Source of the DNA: a virus | Taxonomy: Duplodnaviria > Caudoviricetes | IMG/VR virus record: IMGVR_UViG_3300037311_000228 | Location: 1-54,323 of that record | Reading direction: 5' to 3' (one strand) | DNA length: 54,323 nucleotides | Shown: positions 1-54,323 of the stretch, in pieces | How positions within the stretch are numbered: position 1 is the first letter of the stretch | Layout of the letters: the number at the start of each line of letters is the position of its first letter | Made by a program: the position numbers and the translations under genes | The notes under the pieces: model-generated | What the model was told of the DNA's origin: nothing | Databases searched by the model: none | Seen by the model: the letters and a program-made list of their open reading frames with translations, nothing else

Positions 1-127
1 GGTTGTTGGTCGAAGGGGCGATCCCGCTCATTGTCGTCGGCGCGGGGATCGCGTTGTGGGAACAGACGCCATATCTCTTGTGGTACGCGGCACAAGCGAT
101 TGTCGGGAGTTGGGTGTATCCCATGCT
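1..127 (+). pseudogene. 5'-side fragment of a host fatty acid desaturase-superfamily gene, interrupted by the prophage (begins upstream of window)
   Basis: Hydrophobic LLVEGAIPLIVVGAGIALW...GSWVYPM joins in frame with the right flank; in the lysogen it runs into phage DNA and stops at 212. Confidence 0.85.
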
Positions 128-150
128 GATAAGTGAACCGCGCCCAACAA
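126..150. repeat. Left attachment site: CT core (126-127) plus 23-bp phage arm
   Basis: GATAAGTGAACCGCGCCCAACAA (128-150) is the exact reverse complement of 54177-54199. Confidence 0.95.
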
Positions 151-303
151 GGTTTTTTGTTGCGTGCATGGATGGCTCGCTGACTGCGATTCGCTACGAC
201 AGCGCGGAATAGCTTATATCAGGCGAAAGTCCTGTATGATAAAATGTAAACGTCCTCTCCTCGAGGATCAGGATGAAACTCTGGCGAGCGAAACATCCTG
301 AAC

Positions 304-337
304 AATTCGACCTCGTGCATCTGCACGAGGTCGAATT
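304..337. terminator. 16-bp perfect hairpin, probable terminator
   Basis: AATTCGACCTCGTGCA-TC-TGCACGAGGTCGAATT, downstream of the leftward DUF488 gene; short T run on the + strand. Confidence 0.65.
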
Positions 338-398
338 TTATGAGCGGCGGAGATTCTCTACGGGACGCATAGACTGTTGTGGGGCGCGGGGCATCAAT

Positions 399-1067
399 CT
401 ACTTGCTGACGTTTTTTGCTGCCAGCGCGAGCAGCGTGGCGGGCGAATGATGCGTGACCGTCACACCGAGCGCGTTCACCAGCGTGTCGCCGACAATTTT
501 TCGGTGACACCAGCGCACGTCTGGACAGACGCACATGAGCAGCGGCTTCTTGCCTTCAGCAAGCAGGCGCTTCACGATCTCGACGCCCGCATCAGCATCC
601 TTCAACACGATCTCCGCGTTGCTCGAACGGTAGTTCATATTCCCCAAAGCGGGAACATGCACGTACCGTTCTTGCAGCACTGTATGCAGACGTGCGCCGC
701 TCCACGCCTGCGCACGGCTGCGCGCGGACAGTCGGATATCGACCAGCACCATGTCCAGTTTTTGCACGGCGTCGATGATCGCCGCTGCGTCCGCACCTTG
801 GTAGCCAAACGTGACGACTTGGAATAATGGATAGGTCAGTGCCTCAGCATCGCGCCGCTCTTGCTGTTCGCGCTCCTCGTCTGTACGGGCATCGAATATC
901 TTTAGCGTCAGCGGCGCATTGAATTCCGTTGTCGCCTGTGCGAACCGCCGCAGTGCCGTTTCCTCTTCGATCCCGAACATACTCATTTGCCTTGTCGCAT
1001 ACCGTGTACGCAGCGTTTTGTCGCCGCCGAATTCGCCGCCCAAACTTAACTGCTTCTTTTGCTCCAT
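399..1067 (-). CDS. DUF488-family protein with N-terminal extension
   Basis: TFGYQG, LVDIR, YVHVPALG and LMC-x7-CHR motifs; GGAGA RBS before MEQKK. Confidence 0.8.
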   Translation of the reverse strand: MEQKKQLSLGGEFGGDKTLRTRYATRQMSMFGIEEETALRRFAQATTEFNAPLTLKIFDARTDEEREQQERRDAEALTYPLFQVVTFGYQGADAAAIIDAVQKLDMVLVDIRLSARSRAQAWSGARLHTVLQERYVHVPALGNMNYRSSNAEIVLKDADAGVEIVKRLLAEGKKPLLMCVCPDVRWCHRKIVGDTLVNALGVTVTHHSPATLLALAAKNVSK

Positions 1068-1125
1068 GAGCTTGTCTCCATGTCTCGTGTAGGTGGGGCG
1101 GCGAAGCCCGCCACCCCAAACATCA

Positions 1126-2136
1126 TTACAGGCGTTCGACGTGTGCCGCGTCTTCGGCGGTCTCATCTGTGGCGCTGATGGTTGGCAGCATCGGCAGGGA
1201 CGGGACGCTCGTCCACTTGAAGCTCACCAGCGTATTGTACAAATTGCCGAGCGCTTCAGCCTGCCCGGTATGTCCTGCCACCAGCAGATCATGAATGTGG
1301 CGGTCGAGAATGTCACCAACCGTATCCGTCATCTTCACGCGCACGGGTGGCAGCTTCTTGTTGATCGGCGCGGCGGTTTTGGCTGCCTTGCCCCAACGCA
1401 CGGTCGGCGCGCTTGCCGCCACTTCCGCGATGAGCGCCAGTTCGAACATGCCGAGTTGCGACTCGGCGATCTGTTCGTCCGCCAGTTTCTTGACGACGCT
1501 TTTCAGCACTGCGAGCGTCATCTGCGGGTTCGTATTCCAGACGCGCAGTGCGATCCGCTGGCGGTTATTGTCGAGACCCGTCAGCGCGATCGCGTGTCCG
1601 AGCGGCATCTGCTTCGCGCGGATAAGAGCTTGAATATCGTCGGCGAGCGCGATCAGCTGCAGGCGCTCTTTGACCAACTGCACACTGCGCCCTGCCACTT
1701 CGGCGGTCTTTTCGACCGTCCATCCAAACCGCTTCATCCGCGCGTCGTAACCTTCCGCCTCTTCCATCGGGTTGAGATCGGCGCGTGCGGTGTTTTCCGC
1801 CAACATCACGGCGGCGGCGGACTCGTCGTCCAACTCACGGACGACGCATGGAATTTCTGACCACTTTAGCACGTCGCGCATCGCCCGTGTTCGGCGTTCG
1901 CCCGCCACGATTTCGTACATTCCATCCGCGCGCGGGCGAACGGTGACAGGTTGGCTGAGACCGTGCTTGTCGATGCTGGCGGCGAGTGTTGCTAATTCGA
2001 CTTCATCAAACGTCTTCCGGTCGTTGTTGCCCGCAATAATTTTTTCAGCAGGCAGCTTGACGATCCGATCCGTCGGCGGGGGCGCGGCTTTTTTCGGCGC
2101 GCGCACTTTCTTGGGTTTGACGCTTACTTCGGACAT
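1126..2136 (-). CDS. ParB/RepB/Spo0J family protein
   Basis: LAASIDKHGLSQPVTVR, YEIVAGERRTRA, ENTARADLNPMEEA, then an HTH; GAGGAG RBS. Confidence 0.92.
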   Translation of the reverse strand: MSEVSVKPKKVRAPKKAAPPPTDRIVKLPAEKIIAGNNDRKTFDEVELATLAASIDKHGLSQPVTVRPRADGMYEIVAGERRTRAMRDVLKWSEIPCVVRELDDESAAAVMLAENTARADLNPMEEAEGYDARMKRFGWTVEKTAEVAGRSVQLVKERLQLIALADDIQALIRAKQMPLGHAIALTGLDNNRQRIALRVWNTNPQMTLAVLKSVVKKLADEQIAESQLGMFELALIAEVAASAPTVRWGKAAKTAAPINKKLPPVRVKMTDTVGDILDRHIHDLLVAGHTGQAEALGNLYNTLVSFKWTSVPSLPMLPTISATDETAEDAAHVERL

Positions 2137-2493: not shown

Positions 2494-3906
2494 ATGTTTC
2501 GAGGCAGCATCCCACAGGATATGCGCGCGATCCTAAACGAGATGGTCGGCACATGGAACACGCCTGCGATCTATGTCGGCTGCTCCGGCAACTTCACAGT
2601 CGAGCGGGTGCTGGCGGCGCATCAGCGGTTTCGGCTGCACGCGAATGATGTAACGATTTACAGCGGATCAATTGGATCGTACCTCGCTGGACAGCCCTTT
2701 CGCCTGACGCTTCGCCCTGCTTTCGTCGAAACACTTGGATGGCTTGCGCCGTACCTCGACTCGCCTCAGCGCGTCGCGGGGACGATCATGCTGGTGGGGC
2801 GACTGCTCGAAGCCATGCGCGGCGATGGTACGTGGAAGACGAATTCATATTACGAACGTTTTATCCCTGCCTATCGTGCGCAGTGGGAAAGAATGCACGC
2901 GAAGACGTGTAGCCGGATCGACACGCTCGCCGGAATGCTGACCGAATACCATTCGGGAGATGTTGTACCGTGGGCAGCAGCGATCCCCAAAGATGCGGGC
3001 TTCATTTCGTATCCACCCTTTTTCAGCGGCGATTACGAGTCGATGTTCCGCAAGCTCGATCTGGTTTTCGACTGGGACAAGCCGACATTCAGCGACATTG
3101 GCGCGGGCAAAATGCTTGATGCGCTCCGTCCTACCCTCGAACGCGCACACTGGATTCTTGGCTTGAACCACCCACTTGATGAACTTGTGCCGTTCTTGCG
3201 CGGTATGACGCAAACCACGAATCGCGGCGTCCCGATTTATGTCTATTCATCCACTTCGGTACGGCGCGTTGTTATCCCGGCGCAGCAGCTTGATCCTGTC
3301 GCAAACACTCGTCTCGTGCCGGGTCAGGCGCTTGGCACACGTCTTCAGATTGCGCCGCTGACACAGGCGCAGTTCCAAACGCTGCGCTCTGCTTATATGA
3401 ACCCCGGTATCAAGCCCGGTCAACCGTCGGCTGCGTATGCAGTCATGGTTGACGACATTTTGATCGGCGCGTTCGCGCTCAGCGTCGCGCCCAGCAAAGC
3501 AGCAATGGATCGGCATTCGACCGTTTACCTGTTGTCCGACTTTCCTGTCGCGCCTACCGACTACCCGCGTCTGTCCAAGCTCGTGCTTTATGCTGCCCTG
3601 AGCCGCGAGGCGCAACTCCTCGCGGAGCGACTGGCGCGAAAGCGCGTGCGAAGCCTATTCACAACCGCCTTTTCGAACAACCCAGTGTCCATGAAATATC
3701 GCGGCTTATTCGACCTGCACAACCGCCGTGAAAATCCGGATTGGTCGCCGGACGCAGAGCGCGATCCAGCGGCGTATTATCGCCAGCGATACCTGATCAA
3801 TTACGTCGCATCCGTCGGCGCATGGACGCTCGCCGAAGGATTTTCATTATGGACACAAAAACACGGAAAGCGAATGACTGCCGATGTTACCAACACAGAC
3901 CATTGA
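2494..3906 (+). CDS. Putative antirestriction adenine methyltransferase-like protein with a Mom/GNAT-like C-terminal half
   Basis: YVGCSGNFT (motif I-like), SYPPF (motif IV-like); C-terminal YLLSDF...RLSKLV...TTAFS..PVSMKYRG. Confidence 0.7.
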   Translation: MFRGSIPQDMRAILNEMVGTWNTPAIYVGCSGNFTVERVLAAHQRFRLHANDVTIYSGSIGSYLAGQPFRLTLRPAFVETLGWLAPYLDSPQRVAGTIMLVGRLLEAMRGDGTWKTNSYYERFIPAYRAQWERMHAKTCSRIDTLAGMLTEYHSGDVVPWAAAIPKDAGFISYPPFFSGDYESMFRKLDLVFDWDKPTFSDIGAGKMLDALRPTLERAHWILGLNHPLDELVPFLRGMTQTTNRGVPIYVYSSTSVRRVVIPAQQLDPVANTRLVPGQALGTRLQIAPLTQAQFQTLRSAYMNPGIKPGQPSAAYAVMVDDILIGAFALSVAPSKAAMDRHSTVYLLSDFPVAPTDYPRLSKLVLYAALSREAQLLAERLARKRVRSLFTTAFSNNPVSMKYRGLFDLHNRRENPDWSPDAERDPAAYYRQRYLINYVASVGAWTLAEGFSLWTQKHGKRMTADVTNTDH

Positions 3907-4858: not shown

Positions 4859-5382
4859 CAGACAAAAAAGAAGCCAAAAAGCGAAAGGACGTTGAGATCG
4901 AACAACGACGGATGAAGATAGCCGCCAACTATCTCGCCGGGATGGACTACCGCGATACAGCGGCTGCGCTCAACGTGTCCCTCGGTACGGTCGCTGGCGA
5001 CATGAAAGCGATCCTCGGTCAGTGGCAAAAACATTATGCCGCCGATCTCAACAAACGGCAGGCGCTTCAACTCAAGCGCCTTGACGTGATGCTGAATGGT
5101 ATTTGGAAGAAAGCACGCGATGGCGATCTGGCGGCGATAGATCGTGTGCTGAGCATCATGGCGCAAGAGTCGCGCATTTTGGGCTTGGACAAGATCAAAC
5201 TTGACCATACGACCGACGGGAAGCCCATGCCGGGGATCACGGTCGTCAACCCTGTGCTGGCGCTATCAGATGAGCAGGTCACGGCGGCGATGAAACTGCT
5301 GGAACACCTCACCGCGCCGCCTGCGCCCGCCATCGATCTGCCACTGAACACGAGCGGAGCGGTGGAAGGGGGGCAAGTATGA
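4849..5382 (+). CDS. Terminase small subunit
   Basis: N-terminal HTH, GDLAAIDRVL...RILGLD; directly before the large subunit. Confidence 0.8.
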   Translation: MSIADKKEAKKRKDVEIEQRRMKIAANYLAGMDYRDTAAALNVSLGTVAGDMKAILGQWQKHYAADLNKRQALQLKRLDVMLNGIWKKARDGDLAAIDRVLSIMAQESRILGLDKIKLDHTTDGKPMPGITVVNPVLALSDEQVTAAMKLLEHLTAPPAPAIDLPLNTSGAVEGGQV

Positions 5383-6770
5383 CGCTAACCCTGGACGCCG
5401 CGCTGTCTCCGGCTGCAACGCCCGCCGGATTCGGGATGCACGTCTACGGTCTGCGTCCAGCGGCGCATCATTGGCGCTGGCTGCACGCCGCGCTCGACCC
5501 ATCGATCCGCAACCTGAATATCATCGCCCCGCGTGACAGCGCGAAGACGACATGGCTGGCGGAAATTCTCACCCAGTGGGAGATCGGCACCAACCCGCTA
5601 CATCGCATCTTCATCGGCAGCGTGACCGACGATCAAGCCAGCAAGCGCCTTGATGCGATCAAGACCGTGATCGAGTCGAGTGAGCGATGGCGGGAAGTGT
5701 TCCCGCACATTGAGCCGGATTACAAGCGCGGTTGGTCTGGTGACGGTCTGCATGTTCTTGATACTCGATTCGCTTATCGAGACTGGATCGCGCGCGTCGC
5801 ACAGTTCGGCAACCTCAAAGTGCCAAACCTGATGGCGGCGGGCGTGGGCAGCAGTCGCGTGATCGGGTCGCGTTTCACGCGCGTTCGACTTGACGACTTG
5901 CACGACGATAAAAACTCGCTGACTGCGCTACAGCGGGATCGGGTAGATAGTTGGTTGATGCAGACGGTATCCAACACCGTCGAGGCGCGCGGGAAGCAGT
6001 TGATCATCGGCACGCGCTGGCATCGAGACGATGTACCCGGTCGCCTGATGAACAATGGCGAGTGGGTCACCATTGAGGTCAAAGCCATTGATGAGGCGGG
6101 GCGCTCATACTGGGCGGAGCATTGGTCTTTGGAGCGGCTCGAACAGAAAAAGCGCGAGATCGGCGCGCGGCACTTTCGCGCAAATTACATGAATGACCCC
6201 TCAGGGCTGTCTGGACAAATTTTTGACGGCAGTTGGTTTCGCCCCCTGCCGGAGACGCTACCGGAATTTCGGACGGTCGTGCTTGGCGTTGATCTTGCCA
6301 TCAGCGAAAAGCAGAACGCCGACTACACCGTGATCGCTACGCTCGGTTTCGACCATGACGGCAGCATGTACATCCTCGACATTCGCCGCGAACGGTGGTC
6401 GTTTCATCGGCAACAGCAAGCGATCATTGGCGCGGCGATGCGCGCTAAGTCTTTGTATCACCGCTTGGATCGGGTCGGCATTGAGGCGGTCGCGTACCAG
6501 TCTTCGGCGGTGCAGGAACTCATTCGCACGACAGACGATCTTCCTATTCTCGGTATTGCGGCGGATACCGACAAGCTGTCGCGCGCGCGTCTATGGGAAG
6601 TGCGCGCACAGCAAGGCTTGGTGTATGCAGACCGCTCGTCGGCTTGGTGGGGGAATTTCATCGATGAAGCGCTCGACTTCCCGCGCGGGAGCCACGACGA
6701 TCAGATCGATGCTGTTTCGGTTGGTTGGCACGCTGCGGCGCGCCCGAACAGTTTTTCGGAGATATGGTAA
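5379..6770 (+). CDS. Terminase large subunit
   Basis: APRDSAKT Walker A, LDD Walker B, IGTRWH, GVDLA and HDDQIDA nuclease motifs. Confidence 0.95.
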   Translation: MTLTLDAALSPAATPAGFGMHVYGLRPAAHHWRWLHAALDPSIRNLNIIAPRDSAKTTWLAEILTQWEIGTNPLHRIFIGSVTDDQASKRLDAIKTVIESSERWREVFPHIEPDYKRGWSGDGLHVLDTRFAYRDWIARVAQFGNLKVPNLMAAGVGSSRVIGSRFTRVRLDDLHDDKNSLTALQRDRVDSWLMQTVSNTVEARGKQLIIGTRWHRDDVPGRLMNNGEWVTIEVKAIDEAGRSYWAEHWSLERLEQKKREIGARHFRANYMNDPSGLSGQIFDGSWFRPLPETLPEFRTVVLGVDLAISEKQNADYTVIATLGFDHDGSMYILDIRRERWSFHRQQQAIIGAAMRAKSLYHRLDRVGIEAVAYQSSAVQELIRTTDDLPILGIAADTDKLSRARLWEVRAQQGLVYADRSSAWWGNFIDEALDFPRGSHDDQIDAVSVGWHAAARPNSFSEIW

Positions 6771-9700
6771 ATGACAACATTGCCCCACGATCCTCCAAGC
6801 GCGCCGAGCGTTAGTGAACGCATGATGTTTTACACCGTCGGGGATCGCCTCGTACCGTTCTCGGCGCTGCGCGCAAACATCGAATTGGATACGCGCACGA
6901 CGCTGGCATCTGCGCTTTTCGCTGGTGATCACCAGCGCATGAGTGCCTATCCAATGTCCGTGACCGCGTATGCGTGCATCGACTATCGCGCACAAACACT
7001 CGCAGGTATTCCTTGTGCAGTGAAGGACGCCGCTGGAGAAGAGGTCGATTGGCATCCACTCGGCGGCGTGCTGCGCGATCTCCCAACCCTCCTTTGGGAT
7101 GTCGAGGCGGCGCTCTGCATTTGGGGTAAGGCGTATGTGCGCAAGCTGTACAACGCGGCGGGCTATCCCACTGGGTTGCAGTGGCTCAACAACGCGCGCG
7201 TGGAGGAGCAGCAAGACCTATACCGCCAAGTCGTAACTGGCTACTGGCTCGATGGTGTCGAGTTGCTTCCGCCGTCACAGATCATTGCCCTGCGGACGTT
7301 CAACCCTGACCCTTACGCCGCTGACGGGATCAGCGCGCTTGAGGTAGCACTGCGGCGCATCTACACCGAGTCAAACCTCTTGACCTTCGCAGAGCAGTTT
7401 TTCCGCAACGCAGCGCGCCCGGACGGGATGCTGATCGCCAAGGGGCAAATGTCGCAAAGCGAGATCGATACTGCGCGACAGCAGTGGCGCGAATTCAAAG
7501 GCAGTGGGAACGCATGGAAAACTTTCGTATCCGGCGGCGAATGGGAGTGGGTCCCGATCACCCCGCCACCCGCCGATCTTGCGATGACGGAACTGACAAC
7601 GACCATTCGCCGGGACATCTGCATCGCCTTCCGCGTCAACCCTGCACTGATCGGAGCGGGGGATGTTGCCGACTCTCTGTCCGCCTCCTCAACCTTCGAC
7701 GGCATCGAGCGCAACCATCTCGAAGCCGTGACGCTTCCCCGAATGAATTACGTCTTGGGGGAAATGAACCGCCAATGGACGTGGAAAGACTTCGATCCCG
7801 CCGATCACTATACCCTTGTGCCAGATATTGCACAGGTGGCATTGCTCTCCAACACGACGGGTGAGCGCGTCGCAACCGCCGAGACGATGAGCAACCGTCT
7901 GGCGGACTACGACGAATCACGACGGGTGATCGGGTTGCCACCGCGCGGCGGGGACTATCTCAAGCGGAGTGCTGCCGAGCCTTTGGCACTCTGGGCGGCT
8001 GGCGGGATAACGCTCAACCGACTGCGCCAGCTTGTTGGCGAAACCGCTATCCCGTCAGCGGGGGAAGTCATCAATTTGGCGGGGACGCTGCTCCCCGCTG
8101 CCAAGTTGATGGACATCGCCGTCGCCAATGCGGAGCGGTTGATCGCGCCGCCTGCGCCCGCGTTCCCATCGCCCTTTGGTCTGAATGCCCCGCCATCACC
8201 CATGACGCTGCCGTCTGAGGCGGAGACAGAAGCGCGTGCGGATGAATGGACGGATACCGGACTGTGCGTCGCCTTGTCGCTGGCGGATAACCCCGATCTG
8301 ATCGCGCTGCAGGCGCGACTCAGGGCGCTGTACCCGCGCGACGTGGAATGGAACGCGCCGAGTCAATTTCATATCACGCTCGTTTACGCGCCGTCGGTAG
8401 CGGACGATGAGGCGGTGAGGTTGTTGGCGGCGCTGCGCGCGCTATCGCTGCCAGAGCTGGTACTGAATGTGGGGTCGTTGGCGGGGTTTGATACGGTGGG
8501 ACGTCACGCACTGCATTTTCGCATTCGTCAGAATGCGGACTTGTTCGACCTACAAGACGCGATCTACGGTCTGTGCGAGGGGGTTCCGACAAGCCAGCAC
8601 AGCGATCCGGCGGCATACACCCCCCACATCACCATGGGCTATAGCACGATCAAGCCCGCCCGCGTGACCTTCACGGGCAAGGTCAAGGTCAAGCCGCGCG
8701 GACTCATTGTTTGGCACGGCGATAAGGTGCTGTGGCGTTCGGAAGACGAGCCTCAGGCGGGTGAGGCGCTGTCGATGCCGACGACTCGCGCGACAATGGA
8801 CGCTTCCCCATTAGCAACCACCATCTGCCTCGCCCTTGCCGATCACCAGATGATCCGCTATGCACAGCGCGTCCTTGCCGATCAACTTGCCGACGCCGGG
8901 ATCACAGGGGAACGCTACACCGAGTCGTCGGCGTGGTCGCTTCCCCTGCTGAACATTGACGCGCCGACGCCGGGCGCTGCCGCCGGACTCTTGATCACCC
9001 TCAACCCCGATGAATGGGCAGCGGTGGAGGTGCGAACGGGGGCGTACACGCTTGCTGAAGATGGCGCGGTGCTGTTGGAGGTAGCGCCCACCCCCGCGCT
9101 CGACAGCGTGGTTGAGCGATTACGAACGCTGGTTGAAGCGGATGGGTGTTCATGTGAACCGATCTCCCCGCGCGTCAGGTTGGCAACTGGCGTGCCGTCG
9201 GGGACAGTGCTTGATTCGAGCGCCATGCCCGCTGGCGGCTATCCCATCATCGCGCGAACACTCGCGCTTCATTATGGCAGCCGTCAGCTTGGCACATGGA
9301 CGCTGCGGCGCGCCACGCCTGATATGCTCAAAGAGCTTCGACATTGGCGAAGCAAAGTCGAGAAGCGAGGCGCGGGCATCGGTTTTGAGACCTACGCGCT
9401 CGCCGGACACCCGCTCGACGCACAGATACGCGCCTGCCTTGCGCACGGCGTCACGCCCGTGCGGGTTTTCGACGCGGCAATGCGGGCGCTTGTTGACGGA
9501 GATGTCGAGCCGCTAGACGATCTGACGCCAAGCCCAGAAGCATATACAGCATGGTGGAAATCTTATGACGACCTTCAGCATAATCTGGGCGCTGCATGGC
9601 TCGACATGATGGGGCGCGCCTTTGATGCACTTCCAGATACGTTCAACGAAGAATACGATCCGCTGCGATTGCTGACCAAGATGCAGAAGCCGCTGATAGA

Positions 9701-10310
9701 ATCGTGGATCGGCACGCCAGATGAACCGGGCGATCTGACCAAACTGATCTTGGCGGGCATGGCAGCGGGGAACACGGCGCTCAAGCGTGAAAGCGCCGCG
9801 CGCCCCTCCAAACGCGCGCTGACCCTGACGCCTGACTGGGAGCTGCTCAGCACTCAAGCCCTCGCTTTCGCACAGGTGTATGGATACACGCTCATTCGCG
9901 GTATCAACGCGACCACCGCCGCGCAGGTGCAGCAGATCATCGCCGACTGGATCATGACCGGAGAATCCGTCGAGGCGCTCCGCGCTCTCTTGCTCCCTGT
10001 GTTCAAGAACCCTCACCGCGCCGAACTCATCGCTCAAACAGAAAGTATTCGCGTGTTCAACGAAGGGGCGTTCGAGCGTTGGCGTGGTGTTGGCGTGACC
10101 CAAGCGACATGGCAGACGGTCAACGATGCGCACGTCTGCCCGATCTGTCAGCCGCTGCACGGTACGGTCGGGAGCGTTGATACGGGTTGGACGCATCCGG
10201 GCGGCGCGGATGACGCGGCGCGCTTTGCGGGGAAAACATATACCGCCTCAGCACATCCCGGTTGCCGTTGTTTCCGGCGTCCGAAACTCGACTCAATTGG
10301 AGCGGACTGA
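6771..10310 (+). CDS. Portal protein fused to a 2H phosphoesterase, a probable degenerate second 2H-like domain and a MuF (gpF-like) minor head domain
   Basis: Portal: YACI..RA, FFRNAARPDG, ICIAFRVNPALIG; 2H: HITL (8370) and HITM (8625); MuF: RAELIAQTE, WQTVNDAHVCPIC, AHPGCRC. Confidence 0.88.
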   Translation: MTTLPHDPPSAPSVSERMMFYTVGDRLVPFSALRANIELDTRTTLASALFAGDHQRMSAYPMSVTAYACIDYRAQTLAGIPCAVKDAAGEEVDWHPLGGVLRDLPTLLWDVEAALCIWGKAYVRKLYNAAGYPTGLQWLNNARVEEQQDLYRQVVTGYWLDGVELLPPSQIIALRTFNPDPYAADGISALEVALRRIYTESNLLTFAEQFFRNAARPDGMLIAKGQMSQSEIDTARQQWREFKGSGNAWKTFVSGGEWEWVPITPPPADLAMTELTTTIRRDICIAFRVNPALIGAGDVADSLSASSTFDGIERNHLEAVTLPRMNYVLGEMNRQWTWKDFDPADHYTLVPDIAQVALLSNTTGERVATAETMSNRLADYDESRRVIGLPPRGGDYLKRSAAEPLALWAAGGITLNRLRQLVGETAIPSAGEVINLAGTLLPAAKLMDIAVANAERLIAPPAPAFPSPFGLNAPPSPMTLPSEAETEARADEWTDTGLCVALSLADNPDLIALQARLRALYPRDVEWNAPSQFHITLVYAPSVADDEAVRLLAALRALSLPELVLNVGSLAGFDTVGRHALHFRIRQNADLFDLQDAIYGLCEGVPTSQHSDPAAYTPHITMGYSTIKPARVTFTGKVKVKPRGLIVWHGDKVLWRSEDEPQAGEALSMPTTRATMDASPLATTICLALADHQMIRYAQRVLADQLADAGITGERYTESSAWSLPLLNIDAPTPGAAAGLLITLNPDEWAAVEVRTGAYTLAEDGAVLLEVAPTPALDSVVERLRTLVEADGCSCEPISPRVRLATGVPSGTVLDSSAMPAGGYPIIARTLALHYGSRQLGTWTLRRATPDMLKELRHWRSKVEKRGAGIGFETYALAGHPLDAQIRACLAHGVTPVRVFDAAMRALVDGDVEPLDDLTPSPEAYTAWWKSYDDLQHNLGAAWLDMMGRAFDALPDTFNEEYDPLRLLTKMQKPLIESWIGTPDEPGDLTKLILAGMAAGNTALKRESAARPSKRALTLTPDWELLSTQALAFAQVYGYTLIRGINATTAAQVQQIIADWIMTGESVEALRALLLPVFKNPHRAELIAQTESIRVFNEGAFERWRGVGVTQATWQTVNDAHVCPICQPLHGTVGSVDTGWTHPGGADDAARFAGKTYTASAHPGCRCFRRPKLDSIGAD

Positions 10311-44119: not shown

Positions 44120-44433
44120 CACTCCCATCCGTTCCCGTCGCTAAATGCGCGTGCAAGATTCGATACCCACGACACGGCTTCATCCGCGCCGCGCAAAACA
44201 ACTACGTCCATGCCGTTCCAGCGGTTTTGGAAGGCGCCTTGTTCGGCGCTTAGCTTGCCAGTAGCGGACTTGACCTCTGCCAAAAAGGTCATGCCGCCGT
44301 ACCCAACCAGCAGATCGGGTACCCCCTTTTGGGATAAGCGAACGACGGTCGCGCCGCAGCGGGTCAACGCCTCTACGATCTCAGCTTCATTCGCGTCACG
44401 CTTTGCCGCGCGGCGCGGAATACCCTTTGTCAT
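44119..44433 (-). CDS. VRR-NUC-like nuclease
   Basis: GVPDLLV...AEVKS..GKLSAEQ. Confidence 0.8.
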   Translation of the reverse strand: MTKGIPRRAAKRDANEAEIVEALTRCGATVVRLSQKGVPDLLVGYGGMTFLAEVKSATGKLSAEQGAFQNRWNGMDVVVLRGADEAVSWVSNLARAFSDGNGWE

Positions 44434-44478: not shown

Positions 44479-45360
44479 TTATTCTGTTGATGCGAGTTGT
44501 TCGCGCGTCTTGCGAACGGCTTCATCGGCGGCGGCGCGCCCGCCCGTCCACTCGCTCCAGCGCGCGACTCCGAGTGCCGCGCGCAAGGCTTCTTGGGAAA
44601 CGCCCTGAGCTGCCCATGACGCTATCCATGCGTTCACAGCGTCTGGCGTCCACTCGTCCGCTAGGGAGTCCGCTGCCGCGATCTCGTCTTGTTGCTGCAC
44701 CCGCTCACCATCGGCATAGGCGCGCGCGAAAGGCTCAAAGACAGACCAATTGACGCTTGGCAAGTGCGCGGGCAGGTTTTGTCCGCGCGACTTGATCACC
44801 GTCCCCGAATGATCGGGCAGCAGCCGAACAACAAAATCCATGGCGTAGGACAGCGACTTATCCGCATCGGGTTTGATGCCCGTGCGCGTAAGCTGTCCAT
44901 TGGTTGTTTCATATTCGTAAGACTCCCGCGCGATCAAGATGGTATGCACGGGCAGATTCGTCAGTTGGGTATACAGCGACTTCATCCGCGTGTTGACCTT
45001 CGACCACTCGCGGAACCCCAGTTCGTTGTTTTTCGCCGTCTTCGCCATGCCTTCTTTCAGCACGTCGTAAAAGACGGTGATCGGGTCGATCACCAGCGTG
45101 TCGAAGGTCTTGCCTTTGTCGTCGCGGATGAACGCAACGGCGTGTTCAAGGTCAGCCACCGTTTTGGTGCGCATCACTTGAAAAGGTGCGACCCCGGATC
45201 GTCCGGTGTACAGGTCTGCGCCCGACTCAGCGTCCACAAGTGCGACGCGCGGAAAGGAAAGGGCAGCGAGAGTTTTCCCCGATCCGGGCGCGCCGAAGAA
45301 CAACAGCTTGAGTTTCTTGGCAACGAGCGCGGCGTTGCTGAACGGGTTTTGTAATGCCAT
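44479..45360 (-). CDS. AAA ATPase, Sak4-like recombinase
   Basis: GAPGSGKT, VDAESG, TLVIDPIT. Confidence 0.85.
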   Translation of the reverse strand: MALQNPFSNAALVAKKLKLLFFGAPGSGKTLAALSFPRVALVDAESGADLYTGRSGVAPFQVMRTKTVADLEHAVAFIRDDKGKTFDTLVIDPITVFYDVLKEGMAKTAKNNELGFREWSKVNTRMKSLYTQLTNLPVHTILIARESYEYETTNGQLTRTGIKPDADKSLSYAMDFVVRLLPDHSGTVIKSRGQNLPAHLPSVNWSVFEPFARAYADGERVQQQDEIAAADSLADEWTPDAVNAWIASWAAQGVSQEALRAALGVARWSEWTGGRAAADEAVRKTREQLASTE

Positions 45361-45471
45361 GCGATACTCCTTTGTGCTATACTCATGCACGGACGCCTCC
45401 ACCTGAGCATGTGCGTCCGTGCTGTACGGTTAGCGGCTTTCGACAGCCGCTTTTTGATTCGCCACCTTGCT

Positions 45472-46606: not shown

Positions 46607-47130
46607 CAGTAGCTCCTTTCGTGGTTGCGTTCCGCAACTTGGATAAACAAATTCCCTGTCCCCCCGTGCGCCCGATCCCCGCCCGCGAAGTCGCATTTGA
46701 CTTGGAGGCGCACTGACGCGCGCAAAAGGAGGTCTGTCCCCGCGATCTGCATTTCTAGATCGCGGACAACTTCCTGCGACAGTGGCAGCGCGATCAACCC
46801 CGCCGCGATCCCCGCCTGCACCAGCTTGAGGGCAAGCAGTCCCTTTTCTGAGGGGCGCATGTCCGCGCGGATCGGGTACGCGCGCCACATGCTAAGAGTG
46901 AGCGCAAAACTTTGACACCCGGGGATGTCATCTGGCGGGACGAGATATCCCTCTGCTGTCAGGCGTCCGTTGATGTAGACCGGGACGCGGCGATAGCGCG
47001 TCAGCGGCATCGCCTGCGCCGCCGTCGTCGCGTAGACATACACGCGGCGCGCCATGGGACAGACGTGCGCACGCACATCGCTTTGCTCGGCGATGATCCC
47101 GTAGGGGATCAGACCTTCGTGAGCGATCAT
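46606..47130 (-). CDS. Hypothetical protein, possible PD-(D/E)xK nuclease fold
   Basis: QIAGTDL...QVKCD...TGNLFIQ. Confidence 0.5.
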   Translation of the reverse strand: MIAHEGLIPYGIIAEQSDVRAHVCPMARRVYVYATTAAQAMPLTRYRRVPVYINGRLTAEGYLVPPDDIPGCQSFALTLSMWRAYPIRADMRPSEKGLLALKLVQAGIAAGLIALPLSQEVVRDLEMQIAGTDLLLRASVRLQVKCDFAGGDRAHGGTGNLFIQVAERNHERSY

Positions 47131-49829
47131 GATGCCGCCTCCTTTTGATCGATCTCGTTGCCGAATGTCGCCCAACCGGGACGGCTGCGGCGCGCGAACA
47201 ATTCGAGATAGCTACAGCCGGGATACAGCGTTTCGAGCATCGTGTGTACGCTGTCCGGCTTGCGGCTGTGTTCCTGCACAGCCGCGCTGATCACGCTGCT
47301 CAGTGGCGGGGAAGGGTTGACGAGTGGCGTCATGCTGCCCCGCGTCGCCACGAGCAGGTGTTCGTGATGAATGCGCGTGTACCACCCGTTGCCGGGCTTC
47401 TGCAGATCGGTTTTCACCCAGACGATATTCGTCTTGTAGGTGAAGTCCCACGCATCGATCACCGCAAACGCATCTCGCAAAAATGGCGCAGTTGTCCAGA
47501 GGAACAGCACCGCGTTGGGTGCCACCCTGAACGAGTAGTTGTTGAGCAAGGCGCAAATGTCCGGCAGCGGCATGGGATCGTAGTGATTCGCCGCCGCCCC
47601 ATTGACCCCCTTGTTGTCGTATTCCCACGGGGGATCGGCGAGGATCACGTTGTAGGTTTTGGCAGCGAGACTCTGCGCGCGCGACGCCGCCTCCGCCCTG
47701 CGCGCTTCAACCGCGATCTGACGGTGCAAGCGCGCCTTCAGATCAATCGCCTCGCGCAATGCCTTGTAGCCCGCTGATCCTGCTACCGCGTCGGTCTCGT
47801 CCGTCAGTTGGATGAAGCCCGACGCCGCGATGTCCTCCCACCAGCCGGCGTTATTGCGCGCGCCGTCGGCGAACAGATCGATCACGTCGGGGTCGTCCAC
47901 CCCGAGATTCCGCGCGACTATCTGCACTTGCTCAGGGGCGCGTCGCAGCGACGCGCTGACCAATGCCGCGCGTCGCTCGGCGGCGATCTCAAGCGCCGTC
48001 TTGCGCGGTTGGGCGGGCGGCTGCACAGCGGGCAGCGGGGGGACTGACGGCGGCACATTACGGATGTGGACGCCGTTCCCATTGCCGTGAGAGTCGGGGA
48101 CAAGCAGCGGCGTCGGTGACTTCGCATCGCGCGCGGCGACCCGCTCGATCTCCGCCGCGCCCCGCGCGCGCAGTTCGGGCAGCAGTGGATGAGCCGCTTC
48201 GCAGAACCACACCATCAGCGTGGTCGTGCTGACCCCGCCCAAGCCCGCACTTGCGCCGGGTTCAATGTCTGCGCCCGCCGCCAAGACAATGTAGCCGAGC
48301 GACTCGATCTTGGCACGAGCGTTGTCCAGCGCGTCGGTCACGCGCTCCGGGATGATGCCCGCCGCGTAGGGCGTGTTCAGCGCGACGCTGAACGTCCCCG
48401 CGTTGCCATTGCGCTCGTGACGGACGACGCGCGTCATATCAACGCCGGCGTTCATGAGTCTGATGCTCATGTCGCGCACGGTCAGCGCGCCCGGCTCTGG
48501 CGCGGGCAGGTTGGCGAGCGCCTGCGGTGCCTGCTTGCCGAGCAGCAGCCAGCCGCTCGGTTGCAGTTGCAGCGCGCCCGCCGCATCTTCAGCCACGTAT
48601 CCTGCCTCCACCAACGTGTTCAGGCGCGCCCGATCATTTTGGAAGATGCGCGCCTCTAAAGACGTGAGCCACGGCTTGCGGCTGTAGCGGTGAGCATCCC
48701 AGAGCTTTTCGAGGATGCTCCGCTTGTGCGATGAGATCGGTTCGCCATCGGCAACGCGGACGCGCGCGAATGGCACATGGCGCGCGTCCGTCGTATCGCT
48801 ATCGACGATCACGCCGTCCTCGTCAACCGCAACGACTTCGTACAACCCGCCCCCGAGGTTGATGATGCTGCCGATGTCCACGTTCGGCGCGAGTGCGGGT
48901 GCAGGTGCAGGGGCGGCGTCGCCGTCGTCTGCGGCGGTGGTCGTCGTGGTTTCACCCGCGCGCAGAACATCACGGGCGAAAAAGCGGTGCGTCGAGCGGC
49001 TTTCGTTGATGTACACCTCATACGGGGCAAACAAAGCGCGTGGGTTGATATAGCGCAGGACGCCCGCACGTCCGCGCGCCAATACGCGCTCTCCGATCCG
49101 GATGTCGAGCGAGGCGGGGATCGGCACGGCGTGGCTGTGCGGGATGTGTGCCTGCCCGCCCTCATCTACATCGACGGTCACATCGCGGTCTCCGATCTCG
49201 ACGACCACGCCCGCGATACGCCGATTCGTGCGGTCAACGACCCGCGCACCGAGTACGATGCTCGGATGCAGGTTCGCACGCGGCGGCAGTGCCTCGGACG
49301 ACTCATTGGCGCGGGTGCCGATGTTGGCGGTGTTCTGGGTGTAGGTCGCGCCGCCGCGCTGTACAACGCGCGCGTCTATCTTCGGAATTTCCGAAGATGC
49401 TTCGAGTGCTGCCCGCACAGCACCAACGGTTTTATCGCTGACCGCAACGTGCTTGGCGATATCATTATTGGACTTACCCGCACCCTGTGGGTGCAGCAGA
49501 GCGGCGCGGATGGCGCGCCGCTTGTCCTCGTTGGTACGCGGCAAGCCGTGCGTGGCATTGACGGCGTAGCTGCGCCACTGCGCGTCTTCCAGCGTTCCGG
49601 TTTCGACGATGAAGTCGAATTCCTTCCAGTTGGCGCGCTTGGCGGCTTCGATCCGGTGAAAGCCGTCGATGAGCCAGTAGCTCGACCCGTCGTAGACCAC
49701 GCGGGCAGGCGGGAACTGGTCGCCGCGCTCCAGTGCCTCAGTGTAGACGGTGACTGTTTCTTCGTGCAGCCCGCCGCGCGGCTGTGTGCCGCCATCGAGC
49801 CGAACATCCGCAACTTTCAACGTTGTCAT
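47127..49829 (-). CDS. Multidomain ParB-like N-terminus / MT-A70 adenine methyltransferase
   Basis: LIDGFHRIEAA and NATHG; C-terminal ADPPW, LFLW, EHSRKP, ELFAR. Confidence 0.9.
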   Translation of the reverse strand: MTTLKVADVRLDGGTQPRGGLHEETVTVYTEALERGDQFPPARVVYDGSSYWLIDGFHRIEAAKRANWKEFDFIVETGTLEDAQWRSYAVNATHGLPRTNEDKRRAIRAALLHPQGAGKSNNDIAKHVAVSDKTVGAVRAALEASSEIPKIDARVVQRGGATYTQNTANIGTRANESSEALPPRANLHPSIVLGARVVDRTNRRIAGVVVEIGDRDVTVDVDEGGQAHIPHSHAVPIPASLDIRIGERVLARGRAGVLRYINPRALFAPYEVYINESRSTHRFFARDVLRAGETTTTTAADDGDAAPAPAPALAPNVDIGSIINLGGGLYEVVAVDEDGVIVDSDTTDARHVPFARVRVADGEPISSHKRSILEKLWDAHRYSRKPWLTSLEARIFQNDRARLNTLVEAGYVAEDAAGALQLQPSGWLLLGKQAPQALANLPAPEPGALTVRDMSIRLMNAGVDMTRVVRHERNGNAGTFSVALNTPYAAGIIPERVTDALDNARAKIESLGYIVLAAGADIEPGASAGLGGVSTTTLMVWFCEAAHPLLPELRARGAAEIERVAARDAKSPTPLLVPDSHGNGNGVHIRNVPPSVPPLPAVQPPAQPRKTALEIAAERRAALVSASLRRAPEQVQIVARNLGVDDPDVIDLFADGARNNAGWWEDIAASGFIQLTDETDAVAGSAGYKALREAIDLKARLHRQIAVEARRAEAASRAQSLAAKTYNVILADPPWEYDNKGVNGAAANHYDPMPLPDICALLNNYSFRVAPNAVLFLWTTAPFLRDAFAVIDAWDFTYKTNIVWVKTDLQKPGNGWYTRIHHEHLLVATRGSMTPLVNPSPPLSSVISAAVQEHSRKPDSVHTMLETLYPGCSYLELFARRSRPGWATFGNEIDQKEAAS

Positions 49830-50005
49830 GCAGCGTCCTCCGGCGCTTGCTCGTTCATCTGCTGCTCGATCCGGGCTGCCAGCGACGGCAGCACCGCCGC
49901 CAAGCCGGGAAACATCGCTCGGAGGGCGGCGGCGTCCAGCACGTCCGACGCCGCGCACGGGATGAAGCCGGGCTGCTGGGACAGGGGGAGTTTGAGATCG
50001 CTCAT
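49826..50005 (-). CDS. Hypothetical protein (59 aa, below the ORF-track cutoff)
   Basis: GGAGG RBS, MSDLKLP...; stop overlaps the next ATG. Confidence 0.5.
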   Translation of the reverse strand: MSDLKLPLSQQPGFIPCAASDVLDAAALRAMFPGLAAVLPSLAARIEQQMNEQAPEDAA

Positions 50006-50007
50006 GA

Positions 50008-50322
50008 CTATCTACCTCCCTGTGCGCGGGGGAGGACGTACATCTCTGCCTCGCGCTGCGCATCTTCCACGCTGGCAGAGTCTAGGAGCGCGATCACCCC
50101 AACCTCTTTCAGATGACTGATCTGGGCTTGAGTCGCCAGCATCATCACTTTGCGCGTGGTCGGGGCGGAAAGCACCCCATTTTCGACATACTCACGGTTC
50201 ATCGTCTCGACGAGAGCATCGAGGTCGGCTTGCGTCCCGCGCGACATAGCGCGGAGCGACTCTGCCGGCGTGTTCAGTCCGTAGGGGCGCCGTTCGCGCG
50301 GCATGTCATTGTCTCCTTTCAT
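50008..50322 (-). CDS. Hypothetical protein
   Basis: AAGGAG RBS before MPRERR; start uncertain. Confidence 0.6.
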   Translation of the reverse strand: MKGDNDMPRERRPYGLNTPAESLRAMSRGTQADLDALVETMNREYVENGVLSAPTTRKVMMLATQAQISHLKEVGVIALLDSASVEDAQREAEMYVLPRAQGGR

Positions 50323-51404: not shown

Positions 51405-52019
51405 ATGAGTGGGCAGCCCAAGGACGAGTCGCTTTTGAAATATTTCGAGCGTATCAACGACGCGGATCACGTTTTGACCTACGCCGATGTAGCGCGCGAC
51501 TTCACCGAACCGACATACCGCGATGCGATCCGCCGACTGTACAGCGCGGAACTGTTGGAGCGCCCTCCGCTGGCGGCGCAAATGGGCAAGCTCTTTTCAG
51601 CCGATGAATTGAAGTTATGGGTGACTCGGTTGGGGCTTCCACCGAAGGGCAAAAAAGCTGATCTGATCGACGCGATCATCAAAGCAGATGCGACAGCCGC
51701 CCAGAGCGCCATCAAAAAAACATTTTTGGTTGTGACCGACGCGGGGCTAAAACGCTCAGAAAAATTTCAGTCTGCACTCGTCCTCGCCGAGCGCGCACAG
51801 CGTGAACGTGAGCGTGCGAAATATTGGAAAGAGCGGCTTGCGGAATATCGCGCATTAGATATTCAATCGGTTCGCATTGTCACGTTGAACGATGACCACG
51901 TCTGCGCGGTATGCCGTGAAGCCAGCGAGCGTATTCACACGCTCGACGAGGCGGAGGCGCATCGAAGTCGCTGCGTGAGCGAAGATGGTTGCCGTTGTAT
52001 GATTCGGATGGTTCAATAA
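51405..52019 (+). CDS. SAP-like domain protein with a MuF-like Cys motif (start uncertain, 51210 or 51405)
   Basis: ADELK.....LGLPPKGKKADLIDAI; TLNDDHVCAVC...GCRC. Confidence 0.65.
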   Translation: MSGQPKDESLLKYFERINDADHVLTYADVARDFTEPTYRDAIRRLYSAELLERPPLAAQMGKLFSADELKLWVTRLGLPPKGKKADLIDAIIKADATAAQSAIKKTFLVVTDAGLKRSEKFQSALVLAERAQRERERAKYWKERLAEYRALDIQSVRIVTLNDDHVCAVCREASERIHTLDEAEAHRSRCVSEDGCRCMIRMVQ

Positions 52020-52020
52020 C

Positions 52021-52578
52021 ATGAAAACGATCCTCTATCGCTTAGGGACGGGGATATATTGGCTCGCGTTGGTCGGCGGCGCGTTGGGTCTGATCACCGG
52101 CGTGATCACGCTGTTCCAGCCCAACACAGGGGGAACGCAGGGCTTCGCCATCATCATCAGCGTTTTGATCTCGACGCTGTTTCTCGCGGCGTTTGGCAAG
52201 GTGCTTCAAGCTATTGCCAGTATCAACGAGCGCCAGATCGATCTGGTCGATCTACTCGACGAATTGGTGACCGTGCAAAAACAGCAGGGTTCGATCCTTA
52301 AGCGCATTGAGGCGGAAACACCTAAGTCATCCCCCGTCGAAGATGTGTTCTCGGAAGTCCGCCAGTTGATCGAACTTGAAGACCTGCAAGCTGCGCGCGA
52401 ACGACTTGTCGTCTTGCAGCGCGAGCGCGCGAACGATCCCAACCTCTGGTATTACATCTCGCTTGTTGCGACAAACACAGACCGTCGTATCGCGGCTGCG
52501 CGTCAGGCGCTTTCACTTCAGCCCGATCATGCGAAGGCGCGCCAGCGGTTGAATGCGTTGACGCGCCAACAAAACTGA
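52021..52578 (+). CDS. Two-TM membrane protein with C-terminal TPR-like region
   Basis: Two TM segments; LWYYIS...ALSLQPDHAKARQRL. Confidence 0.75.
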   Translation: MKTILYRLGTGIYWLALVGGALGLITGVITLFQPNTGGTQGFAIIISVLISTLFLAAFGKVLQAIASINERQIDLVDLLDELVTVQKQQGSILKRIEAETPKSSPVEDVFSEVRQLIELEDLQAARERLVVLQRERANDPNLWYYISLVATNTDRRIAAARQALSLQPDHAKARQRLNALTRQQN

Positions 52579-52580
52579 TT

Positions 52581-54176
52581 ATGCCTAAACCCCTCCGTGC
52601 CATCCTTTGGGTTGCCGTATCAAGCCGCGTGCAAGCAGACGAAACAGAGAAAGAAAGCCTCCCTGATCAGGAGCGCCGTCTGCGCGCCATTGCCACAGCA
52701 AAGAGCTGGCAGGTGGTCGATCTTCTCAAAGTACCGGGACATAGCCGCGTTTACTACAATTTCGACCAGTTCACAGAAGCGGCACTGTTGGACGGCATTG
52801 ATGCGGGAGCGCGATTGACCACGCACTGGGAGCGCCAAGACTTTGATGTGTTCGTTTTCACCGACGGCGACCGTTTTGGACGCGAACAGTCCATCTTCAG
52901 CGAGGTGGTCGCACGAACCATTGATGCCGGCGCGTTTTTATACAGCGCCAAAGAGGGCGAAATTATGCGCGGAAACCATCGCATGTACGCGGCGATGGCA
53001 GGCTACCGGGCGGCGTCGGAAATTGATGAGATGAAGCGGCGCTATCAAATGGGCATGGATAAGTTGGCAGAACGCGGGGCGTACACGGGTTCTTATGGGA
53101 CGATCTGGTCTCATCGTCTTGTTCGGGACGAACTTGGAAAGGTGCAACGCATCGAAGTCGATCCCGACAAGCTGCTGATCTTTCAGGACGCAGCGACGAT
53201 TATTCTGGAACACGTTGCTTGGAGTCACATCGAGCGCGAATTGTTCACCCGCTTCGGTCACGGTGAAGACGGCAGACCGTTTCCGCCGAAACGAATTTAC
53301 TACACCATCATGCACCCTGTGTTCTGGGGACACAGCGCGCGCAAATTTCGCAGTCACGATCTCAAATACCGCCAAATCGGACATTGGGTATTTGATGAGT
53401 CGATCACTCCGAATCCGCCCGCGCAAGTCTGGCGCAACACGCACCAACCCATGTGGACGGGTGAACTCGCTGAACGGATCAAAGCGGAGATTCGTTGGCG
53501 TTCGGAGACGGCACAAGCGCGCGCGGCTCGTGTACAGACGCATTTGTTCACGGGTCTGCTGATCTGCGACCAATGCGGCAAACGATTGTCATACTATATT
53601 CATCAGGGTGGGCGTTATTCGTATTTATCATGCGATTCGCGCGACGAAAACAACCGTAAGAACTGTCCAAATTCGGTTGGTATCCGCGAGTCGGACGTAG
53701 AAGCCTTTTTTCGCCAGAGCATTCACACTGCTCTACAAAGCCAAGACTGGTCACTGCTGCTCGGACAAGCCAGCGCCCCAGAACCCGTGCCGCTGGACGC
53801 ATTGGAGGCGCGTGTGAAGGCGCTGGCGACGCGACTGGACGCGCTGATCGATAAACAGGTGAGCGCACCAACGGCGGCACATGATCGCTACCGTCTTAAA
53901 ATTGAAGAAACCGCCAACGACCTTCAGCGCCTTCAAGCTCGCCTTGATGCTGAACGCGCTCAACACATGCAGCGCGCCCGTCATACGACGATCCAGACGA
54001 GCGCCATCAAAGACGTGGTAGCGCTCGGCGAAACGGTGTTTTGGAGTCAATCCCCTGACGACATCAACAAAATGCTGCGCGCCATGCTCGGTGTCAATGC
54101 GCTGGTCGTGCGCGCCGGAAAAATCATCGGCGCAGCGCCATTCATCAAAAAGAAACCCCACTTTCGCAAAAACTAA
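52581..54176 (+). CDS. Large serine recombinase (integrase)
   Basis: AVSS..Q, SLPDQ, DRFGR, recombinase domain, GLLICDQCG zinc ribbon, coiled coil; stop abuts the att arm. Confidence 0.95.
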   Translation: MPKPLRAILWVAVSSRVQADETEKESLPDQERRLRAIATAKSWQVVDLLKVPGHSRVYYNFDQFTEAALLDGIDAGARLTTHWERQDFDVFVFTDGDRFGREQSIFSEVVARTIDAGAFLYSAKEGEIMRGNHRMYAAMAGYRAASEIDEMKRRYQMGMDKLAERGAYTGSYGTIWSHRLVRDELGKVQRIEVDPDKLLIFQDAATIILEHVAWSHIERELFTRFGHGEDGRPFPPKRIYYTIMHPVFWGHSARKFRSHDLKYRQIGHWVFDESITPNPPAQVWRNTHQPMWTGELAERIKAEIRWRSETAQARAARVQTHLFTGLLICDQCGKRLSYYIHQGGRYSYLSCDSRDENNRKNCPNSVGIRESDVEAFFRQSIHTALQSQDWSLLLGQASAPEPVPLDALEARVKALATRLDALIDKQVSAPTAAHDRYRLKIEETANDLQRLQARLDAERAQHMQRARHTTIQTSAIKDVVALGETVFWSQSPDDINKMLRAMLGVNALVVRAGKIIGAAPFIKKKPHFRKN

Positions 54177-54201
54177 TTGTTGGGCGCGGTTCACTTATCC
54201 T
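54177..54201. repeat. Right attachment site: 23-bp phage arm plus CT core (54200-54201)
   Basis: TTGTTGGGCGCGGTTCACTTATC followed by CT. Confidence 0.95.
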
Positions 54202-54323
54202 CACCGTCTATCTGCCCCACAAAGATTTTGGCGATACGCCGCTCACCCAAACGCATACCCTGCGTGGGCGGATCATCCCGGCGCTGTTCTTGGAACTGAC
54301 GTATCATCTCGAACATCATTTGT
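54200..54323 (+). pseudogene. 3'-side fragment of the host desaturase-superfamily gene (continues beyond window)
   Basis: LTVYLPHKDFGDTPLTQTHTLRGRIIPALFLELTYHLEHHL contains the HxxHH third histidine box. Confidence 0.88.

Follow-up and report, generated by a model that had tools for sequence, protein, structure and literature searches.

Introduction

Phages with serine integrases can use chromosomal attachment sites (attB) that lie inside genes, as seen for Bxb1 in groEL1, phiC31 in a pirin-like gene and A118 in comK. Here we describe a prophage of this type in the metagenomic virus record IMGVR_UViG_3300037311_000228, a complete virus record of 54,323 nt that is also a whole metagenome contig and is called the window below. 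A tailed-phage genome occupies positions 128-54199 (54.07 kb) and splits a bacterial gene of the membrane desaturase family; the GC content is 55-66% throughout. For serine-integrase phages intragenic attB sites are usual; further examples are SPbeta, which resides in spsM (PMC4191935), and the comK prophage of Listeria (PMC7397523). Some such elements are phage regulatory switches, in which precise excision of a serine-recombinase element rebuilds the functional gene that it had split (PMC4191935, PMC5499854, PMC7397523). These switches are defined by controlled excision together with retention of the element (PMC4191935, PMC5499854, PMC7397523, PMC6597384).

A first-pass annotation, made from the letters of the window alone, had proposed that the prophage splits a desaturase gene, that precise excision restores it, and that the locus is a candidate phage-controlled lipid switch. 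The split and the restorable frame are borne out by the results below, but the step to a phage-controlled switch is not. We read the locus as ordinary lysogeny by a serine-integrase phage, in which a minority of the cells in a mixed population have their desaturase-family gene inactivated, and give this reading a probability of about 0.8. The annotation had also remarked that a desaturase target was unfamiliar. This fits with our full-text literature searches, which brought up no prophage residing in such a gene (among the matches listed, the term desaturase occurred only in an unrelated review), the supplements of att-site catalogues lying outside their scope and possibly holding a prior listing. 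Text searches in PMC5311408 and PMC10654092 returned nothing useful on intragenic targets or desaturases.

Results

The element is bounded by serine-recombinase junctions

Outside the element the window retains 127 nt on the left and 124 nt on the right (Table 1). The left flank terminates ...TAT CCC ATG CT at window 117-127 and the right flank opens CT C ACC GTC TAT CTG CCC CAC at 54200. A single CT is present at each junction, and 23-nt perfectly inverted arms adjoin it directly inside the element. This pattern of one CT per junction is the signature of a serine-recombinase crossover, and as the inverted repeat is 100% complementary over 23 nt and adjoins the shared CT, the junction is not a product of chance. 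On excision the element would carry an attP made of the two perfect 23-nt inverted arms around the non-palindromic CT. The att sites show what is expected for a serine integrase: they are short, the crossover spans 2 bp and is not palindromic, attP is an inverted repeat, and the target is not duplicated beyond the core. The attB half-sites are not palindromic (8/25 positions), and their likeness to the attP arms extends to 9/25 positions only.

The motif ATTGTYGGG is found in both the host B arm (window 99-107) and the phage P arm (54176-54184). We set it aside as a meaningful att motif, because, counted from the CT core, the two copies lie 3 nt out of step and the likeness is probably due to chance. 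It does let the tblastn match of the right flank run on into phage DNA.

The interrupted gene encodes a three-box desaturase-family protein

The left-flank frame (3..125) translates to ...AIVGSWVYPM and the right-flank frame (54203..54322) to TVYLPHKDFGDTPL...YHLEHHL. On its own, the right-flank piece matched PF00487 with 21 bits (E 3.2e-4) at profile positions 181-222 of 253. When the 41-residue left-flank peptide was used as a query for longer proteins, three were found among 9 candidates. In P0003 (112 aa) the left-flank peptide continues straight into the right-flank peptide, with identity over both flanks, and P0004 (277 aa) and P0005 (278 aa) are full-length relatives that are unbroken across the junction point. 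P0006, which falls into the same 90% cluster as P0003, is a full-length protein of 280 aa in which both flank peptides are joined and identical. A tblastn search with P0006 against the window gave 100% identity for residues 168-209 on the left, and the 40 right-flank residues 210-249 were identical as well. Three database contigs encode proteins of the intact gene: one carries P0003, and two (up to 103 kb) carry P0006.

P0006 matches essentially the full PF00487 profile (91 bits, cut-off 29.7; positions 3-251 of 253) and has three His boxes, which start at residues 75 (HDVVH), 111 (HHRHH) and 244 (HLEHH). The join is also continuous in the wider family, since a single high-scoring segment pair spans residues 190-250 in 158 of 160 related loci. 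The junction falls after M208 of 280, between His boxes 2 and 3. In the lysogen the frame yields a product of 236 residues, which keeps the first two His boxes and loses the third. All three His boxes are needed for activity in the desaturase superfamily. The truncated product is presumably inactive, with loss of the enzyme function. A substitute desaturase 3' half inside the phage was sought by tblastn of P0006 against the window, and none was found at E < 1.

Taken together, these results uphold most of what the first-pass annotation had read from the letters: the flank ends and their in-frame join at CT, which exists naturally in P0003, P0006 and a contig of run X1, described below; the identity of the joined open reading frame (ORF) as a desaturase-family member; the stop at 212 without a third His box; and the lack of a replacement 3' half in the phage interior. 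Precise excision at the CT core would, from the sequence, recreate the intact frame exactly.

The empty site has a higher word depth than the occupied site in the possible source run

Run X1, labelled a freshwater metagenome and possibly the source of the window, is the only public run in which the stretch was found, and all sampled words of the window are present in it. We compared its Logan contigs (k=31 assembly) with window 1-2000, the attL side. One record of 4,112 nt (depth 51.3) covers window 1-127 and ends there. A second, of 24,397 nt (depth 12.8), covers 98-2000 without difference and represents attL running into the phage. A third, of 1,712 nt (depth 54.9), covers 98-127 and then continues with 30 letters equal to window 54202-54231. 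This is the empty attB, which the first-pass annotation had suggested looking for and which is also represented by the intact alleles encoding P0003 and P0006.

By rough per-contig means, which are not copy numbers, the empty-site contig has roughly fourfold the word depth of the attL/phage contig (54.9 vs 12.8), and the phage is no deeper than attL. Thus, most attB copies come from phage-free cells and not from cells that have excised and retained the element. Taken at face value, most cells with an intact gene carry no phage DNA, and lysogens are a minority in a mixed population. Judged by these rough depths in one sample, and by the intact alleles on three contigs, the element is not stably kept in its host population. 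An attP branch was not seen among the X1 contigs over window 1-2000, where rare variants are dropped and low-level attP or excision would be invisible.

In other collections, no exact copy of a 37-nt pattern from the left flank was found, with 0 matches each in metagenome contigs and in viral contigs, searches from which the window's own records may be left out. A search of metagenome contigs with P0006 returned relatives of at most 74% identity. The start of the P0003 contig falls within a few bases of the first base of the window, and the ends of the window would fit points at which the original assembly graph branched into the two alleles. A de Bruijn-graph overlap as the origin of these ends is plausible from the 127 nt on the left; with 124 nt on the right, we keep it as an inference only.

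The integrase is a divergent large serine recombinase

The stop codon of the integrase gene sits one base before the P arm at the right end of the element. The N-terminus of the protein reads AILWVAVSS. In an alignment of 22 sequences (the window protein and 21 metagenomic relatives of 30-40% identity), A12, V13 and S14 as well as four cysteines (C329, C332, C351, C362) are invariant. The protein has a resolvase-type catalytic domain (PF00239) in which the invariant S14 is the predicted catalytic nucleophile, and a Zn_ribbon_recom domain (PF13408) with the four invariant cysteines. The recombinase domain PF07508 gave no match in the window integrase at E <= 1; it is annotated in several relatives of 39-40% identity, and the length of the corresponding region is right. 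On this evidence the protein belongs to the large serine recombinases, as a divergent member. Among NCBIfam models the heterocyst excisase XisF scores best, with 48.9 bits vs a cut-off of 375, and the sole match among 50,697 phage records is a Streptococcus phage integrase of 21% identity.

In metagenomes the integrase has 32 relatives at 27-41% identity. As a single query the integrase found no relatives in viral contigs. It had 0 matches in the three genomes reached through the desaturase-family loci L001, L003 and L005, and 0 matches at E <= 1e-15 in 401 genomes of the phylum reached through those loci. When the alignment was used as the query against viral contigs, one locus was retrieved, a 43%-complete fragment (L161). 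No desaturase fragment matched at this locus, the only related integrase locus retrieved.

At L161 a small ORF lies 3' of the integrase gene (~11620-11830, + strand), and by eye its sequence is helix-turn-helix and excisionase-like. The window has no counterpart at that position, since its integrase gene adjoins the att site. No directionality factor was recognisable by homology in the element.

The integration site is a conserved stretch of the gene

The junction lies within the conserved motif GSWVYPxLTVxLPH. Among 136 aligned homologues, the 16-residue segment with the junction at its centre takes rank 21 of 265 in conservation. At the DNA level the CT core is kept in 117 of 135 homologues, and the best relative matches the attB halves of the window at 41/48 positions. 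Integrases commonly target a conserved stretch of a dispensable gene. The split of the gene is best read as a side effect of the choice of attB and not as a regulatory device.

Relatives of the target belong to a conserved two-gene unit

The family of the split gene is large, with 1,128 proteins at E <= 1e-40 among 8,000 candidates scored, and homologous loci were confirmed 423 times in a genome scan and 420 times in a metagenome scan. The nearest named relatives (~70% identity) are Anaerolineae, Chloroflexota and Ktedonobacteria metagenome-assembled genomes (MAGs), which suggests that the host is probably a Chloroflexota bacterium. The family is present too in Actinomycetota, Planctomycetota and Polyangia.

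As for function, the automatic JGI name of many relatives is beta-carotene hydroxylase, and ESM Atlas puts the protein among clusters of the fatty acid desaturase family. The scores of the P0006-type protein lie far below the cut-offs of the CrtR model NF045688 (31.6 bits vs 475) and the CrtW model NF045690 (21 bits vs 350). A PDB sequence search with P0005 gave no match.

We also inspected the gene neighbourhood in the 113 loci among L001-L160 whose upstream sequence extends over 1.5 kb or more; they come from Chloroflexota, Actinomycetota, Planctomycetota and others. In 105 of these a flavin adenine dinucleotide (FAD) oxidoreductase gene (~510-540 aa) lies directly upstream on the same strand, for example at 8390-9910 in L081 and 6365-7996 in L003. 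The flavoenzyme matches Amino_oxidase and aligns end to end with the C-3',4'-desaturase CrtD at 236-270 bits vs a cut-off of 549.7; it stays below every curated carotenoid-enzyme cut-off. At L081, the nearest locus, the pair is situated among rpoC-like, release-factor and SRP54-GTPase-domain (FtsY/Ffh-type) genes, and no other carotenoid genes were found beside it. By gene order, the CrtD-like gene and the desaturase-family gene are a conserved and uncharacterised two-gene unit across phyla. The pair would appear to carry out, as a self-contained unit, two modification steps on a carotenoid-like compound, an isoprenoid or another lipid, and the CrtD-like neighbour hints at a carotenoid or isoprenoid.

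Of twelve loci compared, the three from Actinomycetota have an ORF of ~200 aa after the pair; the L004 copy, the only one scanned, has a TetR N-terminal domain. In an Anaerolineae MAG (L001) the next gene downstream of the desaturase homologue is a second PF00487 paralogue (8816-9628, + strand; 74.8 bits).

The remaining gene content is that of a tailed phage

The features of the window are collected in Table 1. Packaging, head and replication genes were recognised, and the terminase shares at most 29.9% identity with any of the 50,697 phage records. The two genes next to the integrase gave no informative Pfam or PHROG match. In the region 14.3-30.5 kb, Pfam and PHROG scans of the tested ORFs returned no informative family, only a PHROG of unknown function for 24322-25404. 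Judged by its sequence, the element is a temperate phage previously unseen.

Table 1. Features of the window, with the evidence for each assignment.
Feature	Position	Strand	Evidence or remark
Host left flank	1-127	+	Frame 3..125 encodes desaturase-family residues 168-208, plus CT of codon 209; 100% identity to P0006 residues 168-209
Crossover dinucleotide CT in attL	126-127	.	Second copy in attR at 54200-54201; read directly; empty-site contig jumps from 127 to 54202
Read-through tail of truncated lysogen ORF	126-212	+	L209 and 27 phage-encoded residues; TAG at 210-212
P' arm of attP, left arm of 23-nt inverted repeat	128-150	.	100% complementary to 54177-54199
DUF488 protein	399-1166	-	PF04343, 35 bits
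ParB_N/HTH_ParB protein	1126-2136	-	PF02195, 74 bits; PF17762, 59 bits
Phage DAM-like methylase domain fused to GNAT-like domain	2494-3906	+	PF22555, 251.6 bits; PF22559, 176.9 bits
Terminase large subunit	5379-6770	+	phrog_38, E 2e-88
Portal protein fused to Mu-F-like head morphogenesis domain (1179 aa, single ORF)	6771-10310	+	phrog_2662, E 1.2e-57 (residues 65-347); phrog_3517, E 7e-17 (residues 1082-1176)
Probable major head protein	10734-13049	+	phrog_10, E 5.5e-8 (weak match)
Possible head-tail adaptor	13434-14270	+	phrog_442, E 7e-5 (weak match)
Same-strand ORF run including 938, 1174 and 637 aa	14272-30521	+	Putative tail/lysis role, from position only
tRNA-Arg (anticodon TCT)	33974-34046	-	ARAGORN; RF00005, 63.4 bits
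DNA methyltransferase	39549-40790	-	phrog_116, E 2e-94
DnaB-like helicase	41838-43181	-	phrog_19, E 3e-82
DnaD/O-like initiator	43178-44128	-	phrog_186, E 7.5e-15
AAA_24/Sak4-like protein	44479-45402	-	PF13479, 83 bits; phrog_124
978-aa protein with C-terminal MT-A70 methyltransferase domain	47127-50063	-	PF05063, 84.4 bits (residues 804-970)
Large serine recombinase (integrase), 531 aa	52581-54176	+	PF00239, 34.1 bits (cut-off 23.3); PF13408, 45 bits (cut-off 25.3)
P arm of attP, right arm of 23-nt inverted repeat	54177-54199	.	100% complementary to 128-150
Host right flank	54200-54323	+	CT core, third base of codon 209, codons 210-249 including third His box HLEHH; PF00487, E 3.2e-4; identical to P0006 residues 210-249

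Further observations concern the interior of the phage. The tRNA-Arg gene sits within a long spurious ORF (32970-34253), whose translation shows a typical tRNA-derived peptide. The intergenic stretch 35053-35373 contains a palindrome with 25-nt arms (35108-35158, 92% complementary), directly followed by a second palindrome found by eye at ~35160-35195. These palindromes are candidate operators of a lysogeny switch, and the ORFs adjoining the stretch, around this putative genetic switch, had no Pfam or PHROG family match. The DnaD/O-like initiator gene contains a pair of 36-nt direct repeats and a tandem array of three 20-nt repeats (43193-43268, 43726-43785), arranged like the origin iterons in a lambda O-type gene. 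An exact 38-nt direct repeat is present in ORF 40661-41848 (- strand), at 41335-41372 and 41407-41444, 72 nt apart. The phage has three separate DNA-methyltransferase-type genes (2494-3906, 39549-40790, 47127-50063), which suggests a heavy investment against host restriction.

Discussion

In the explanation we favour, a temperate tailed phage (~54.07 kb) would enter a bacterial chromosome, probably that of a Chloroflexota member. Its large serine recombinase would join a near-palindromic attP (23-nt arms around CT) with the attB in the GSWVYPxLTVxLPH stretch and thereby sever a gene of the small membrane diiron desaturase/hydroxylase family after codon 208 of 280. The lysogen would be left with a 236-residue product that has no third His box, and excision at the same CT would rebuild the gene exactly, as for any serine-integrase prophage. 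We observed directly the junctions, the families of the integrase and of the target gene, and an empty allele that occurs naturally and at a higher word depth. Loss of enzyme function, the host phylum, the viability of the phage and the absence of regulation are inferences.

Several points weigh against this explanation. The depths are rough per-contig Logan means and not copy numbers, and rare variants are dropped from the contigs. The comparison is based on one junction (attL) in one run, and the attB- and attL-bearing chromosomes may belong to different strains. Among the tested ORFs no tail or lysis gene was recognised, and the phage may be incomplete, as a defective, domesticated element. 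The host phylum is assigned indirectly, from the nearest named homologues at ~70% identity.

The first-pass annotation had itself named simple insertional inactivation, with attB appearing only on lytic induction, as the outcome that would speak against a switch. We see a milder form of this: the gene is inactivated by insertion, and attB is common because lysogens and non-lysogens are mixed in the population. A phage regulatory switch, in which a cue such as cold, growth phase or differentiation drives precise excision and turns the desaturase operon on, with the phage episomal, re-integrating or excised in terminal cells, appears unlikely to us. It would agree with the exact restoration of the frame, with the intact allele beside the lysogen in run X1, and with an integrase that falls, broadly, into one class with SprA, SpoIVCA and the comK-phage integrase and whose best NCBIfam match is XisF, if far below its cut-off. 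Some Chloroflexota are filamentous or differentiate, which also counts in its favour. Nevertheless, the phage contig has the same depth as attL, a quarter of that of the empty site, so the attB cells are mostly phage-free; an attP branch was not seen in the X1 contigs; and the phage has full packaging, head and replication modules as in an ordinary temperate phage. The base rate is low, too, as many serine-integrase prophages are intragenic and few are known switches. The more specific proposal, that the prophage is a reversible on/off element for a CrtD-like/desaturase lipid or carotenoid unit in an uncultured Chloroflexota host, in which an environmental cue leads to excision and a restored membrane enzyme, we regard as slightly more doubtful still.

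A little less credible again is adaptive lysogenic conversion. In this scenario loss of the enzyme would alter a membrane lipid or pigment to the benefit of the lysogen or the phage, for example through susceptibility to other phages, and the target would have been selected for that phenotype. In related loci the target is the second gene of the conserved two-gene unit (105/113), so its disruption would remove a defined step of a pathway with no polar effect on the upstream gene, and the enzyme is predicted to be membrane-embedded (PF00487). On the other hand, the protein stays far below the cut-offs of the CrtR and CrtW models (31.6/475 and 21/350 bits), and the single related integrase locus retrieved (L161) has no desaturase fragment, so that a conserved relationship between phage and target is not shown. 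An assembly artefact, in which the flanks were mis-joined to a free phage genome with no integration, is highly improbable: the whole contig does end 127 and 124 nt past the att sites in a graph-branch pattern, but the independent k=31 assembly of X1 likewise passes from left-flank to phage sequence with no difference (98-2000), and a chimera would not give flanks that fit a known intact gene exactly at CT beside a perfect inverted repeat and a serine integrase.

Ordinary lysogeny at this site is of interest in several respects. The locus defines an exact attP/attB pair, together with the gene targeted in the host, for a large serine integrase that is very divergent, and new orthogonal integrase/att-site pairs are useful tools. 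It links a novel phage to a probable host in the Chloroflexota, a poorly sampled phylum with few known phages, and flags a widespread, uncharacterised CrtD-like and desaturase-family gene pair. Were regulated excision to prove true, the reach of phage regulatory switches would widen to membrane chemistry; the locus would then be the first such switch outside the Firmicutes-type models and the first acting on membrane lipid or pigment chemistry.

With respect to enzymes, the split gene resembles CrtW and CrtR in the size of its product (~280 aa), in its three His boxes (HxxxH, HxxHH, HxxHH), in a weak full-length similarity to CrtR and in its CrtD-like neighbour gene. It differs from them in that its family scores far below the equivalog cut-offs and that no other carotenoid genes flank the pair at L081.

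With respect to phages, the window shares with SPbeta in spsM and skin in sigK of Bacillus subtilis and with the comK prophage of Listeria a serine-recombinase element inside a gene whose frame is rebuilt by excision. Those elements stay in the lineage, and their excision has been shown to be under developmental or environmental control, whereas most of the population here is without the element. The closer likeness is to phages of the Bxb1, phiC31 and A118 type. The window integrase is distant from all of theirs, and a PF00487 target and a probable Chloroflexota host are without report in the literature searched. As in those phages, however, the integrase gene lies at one end of the prophage, the crossover core is a non-palindromic 2 bp and attP is an inverted repeat; and attB lies in a conserved coding gene that is split without duplication and that exact excision would restore.

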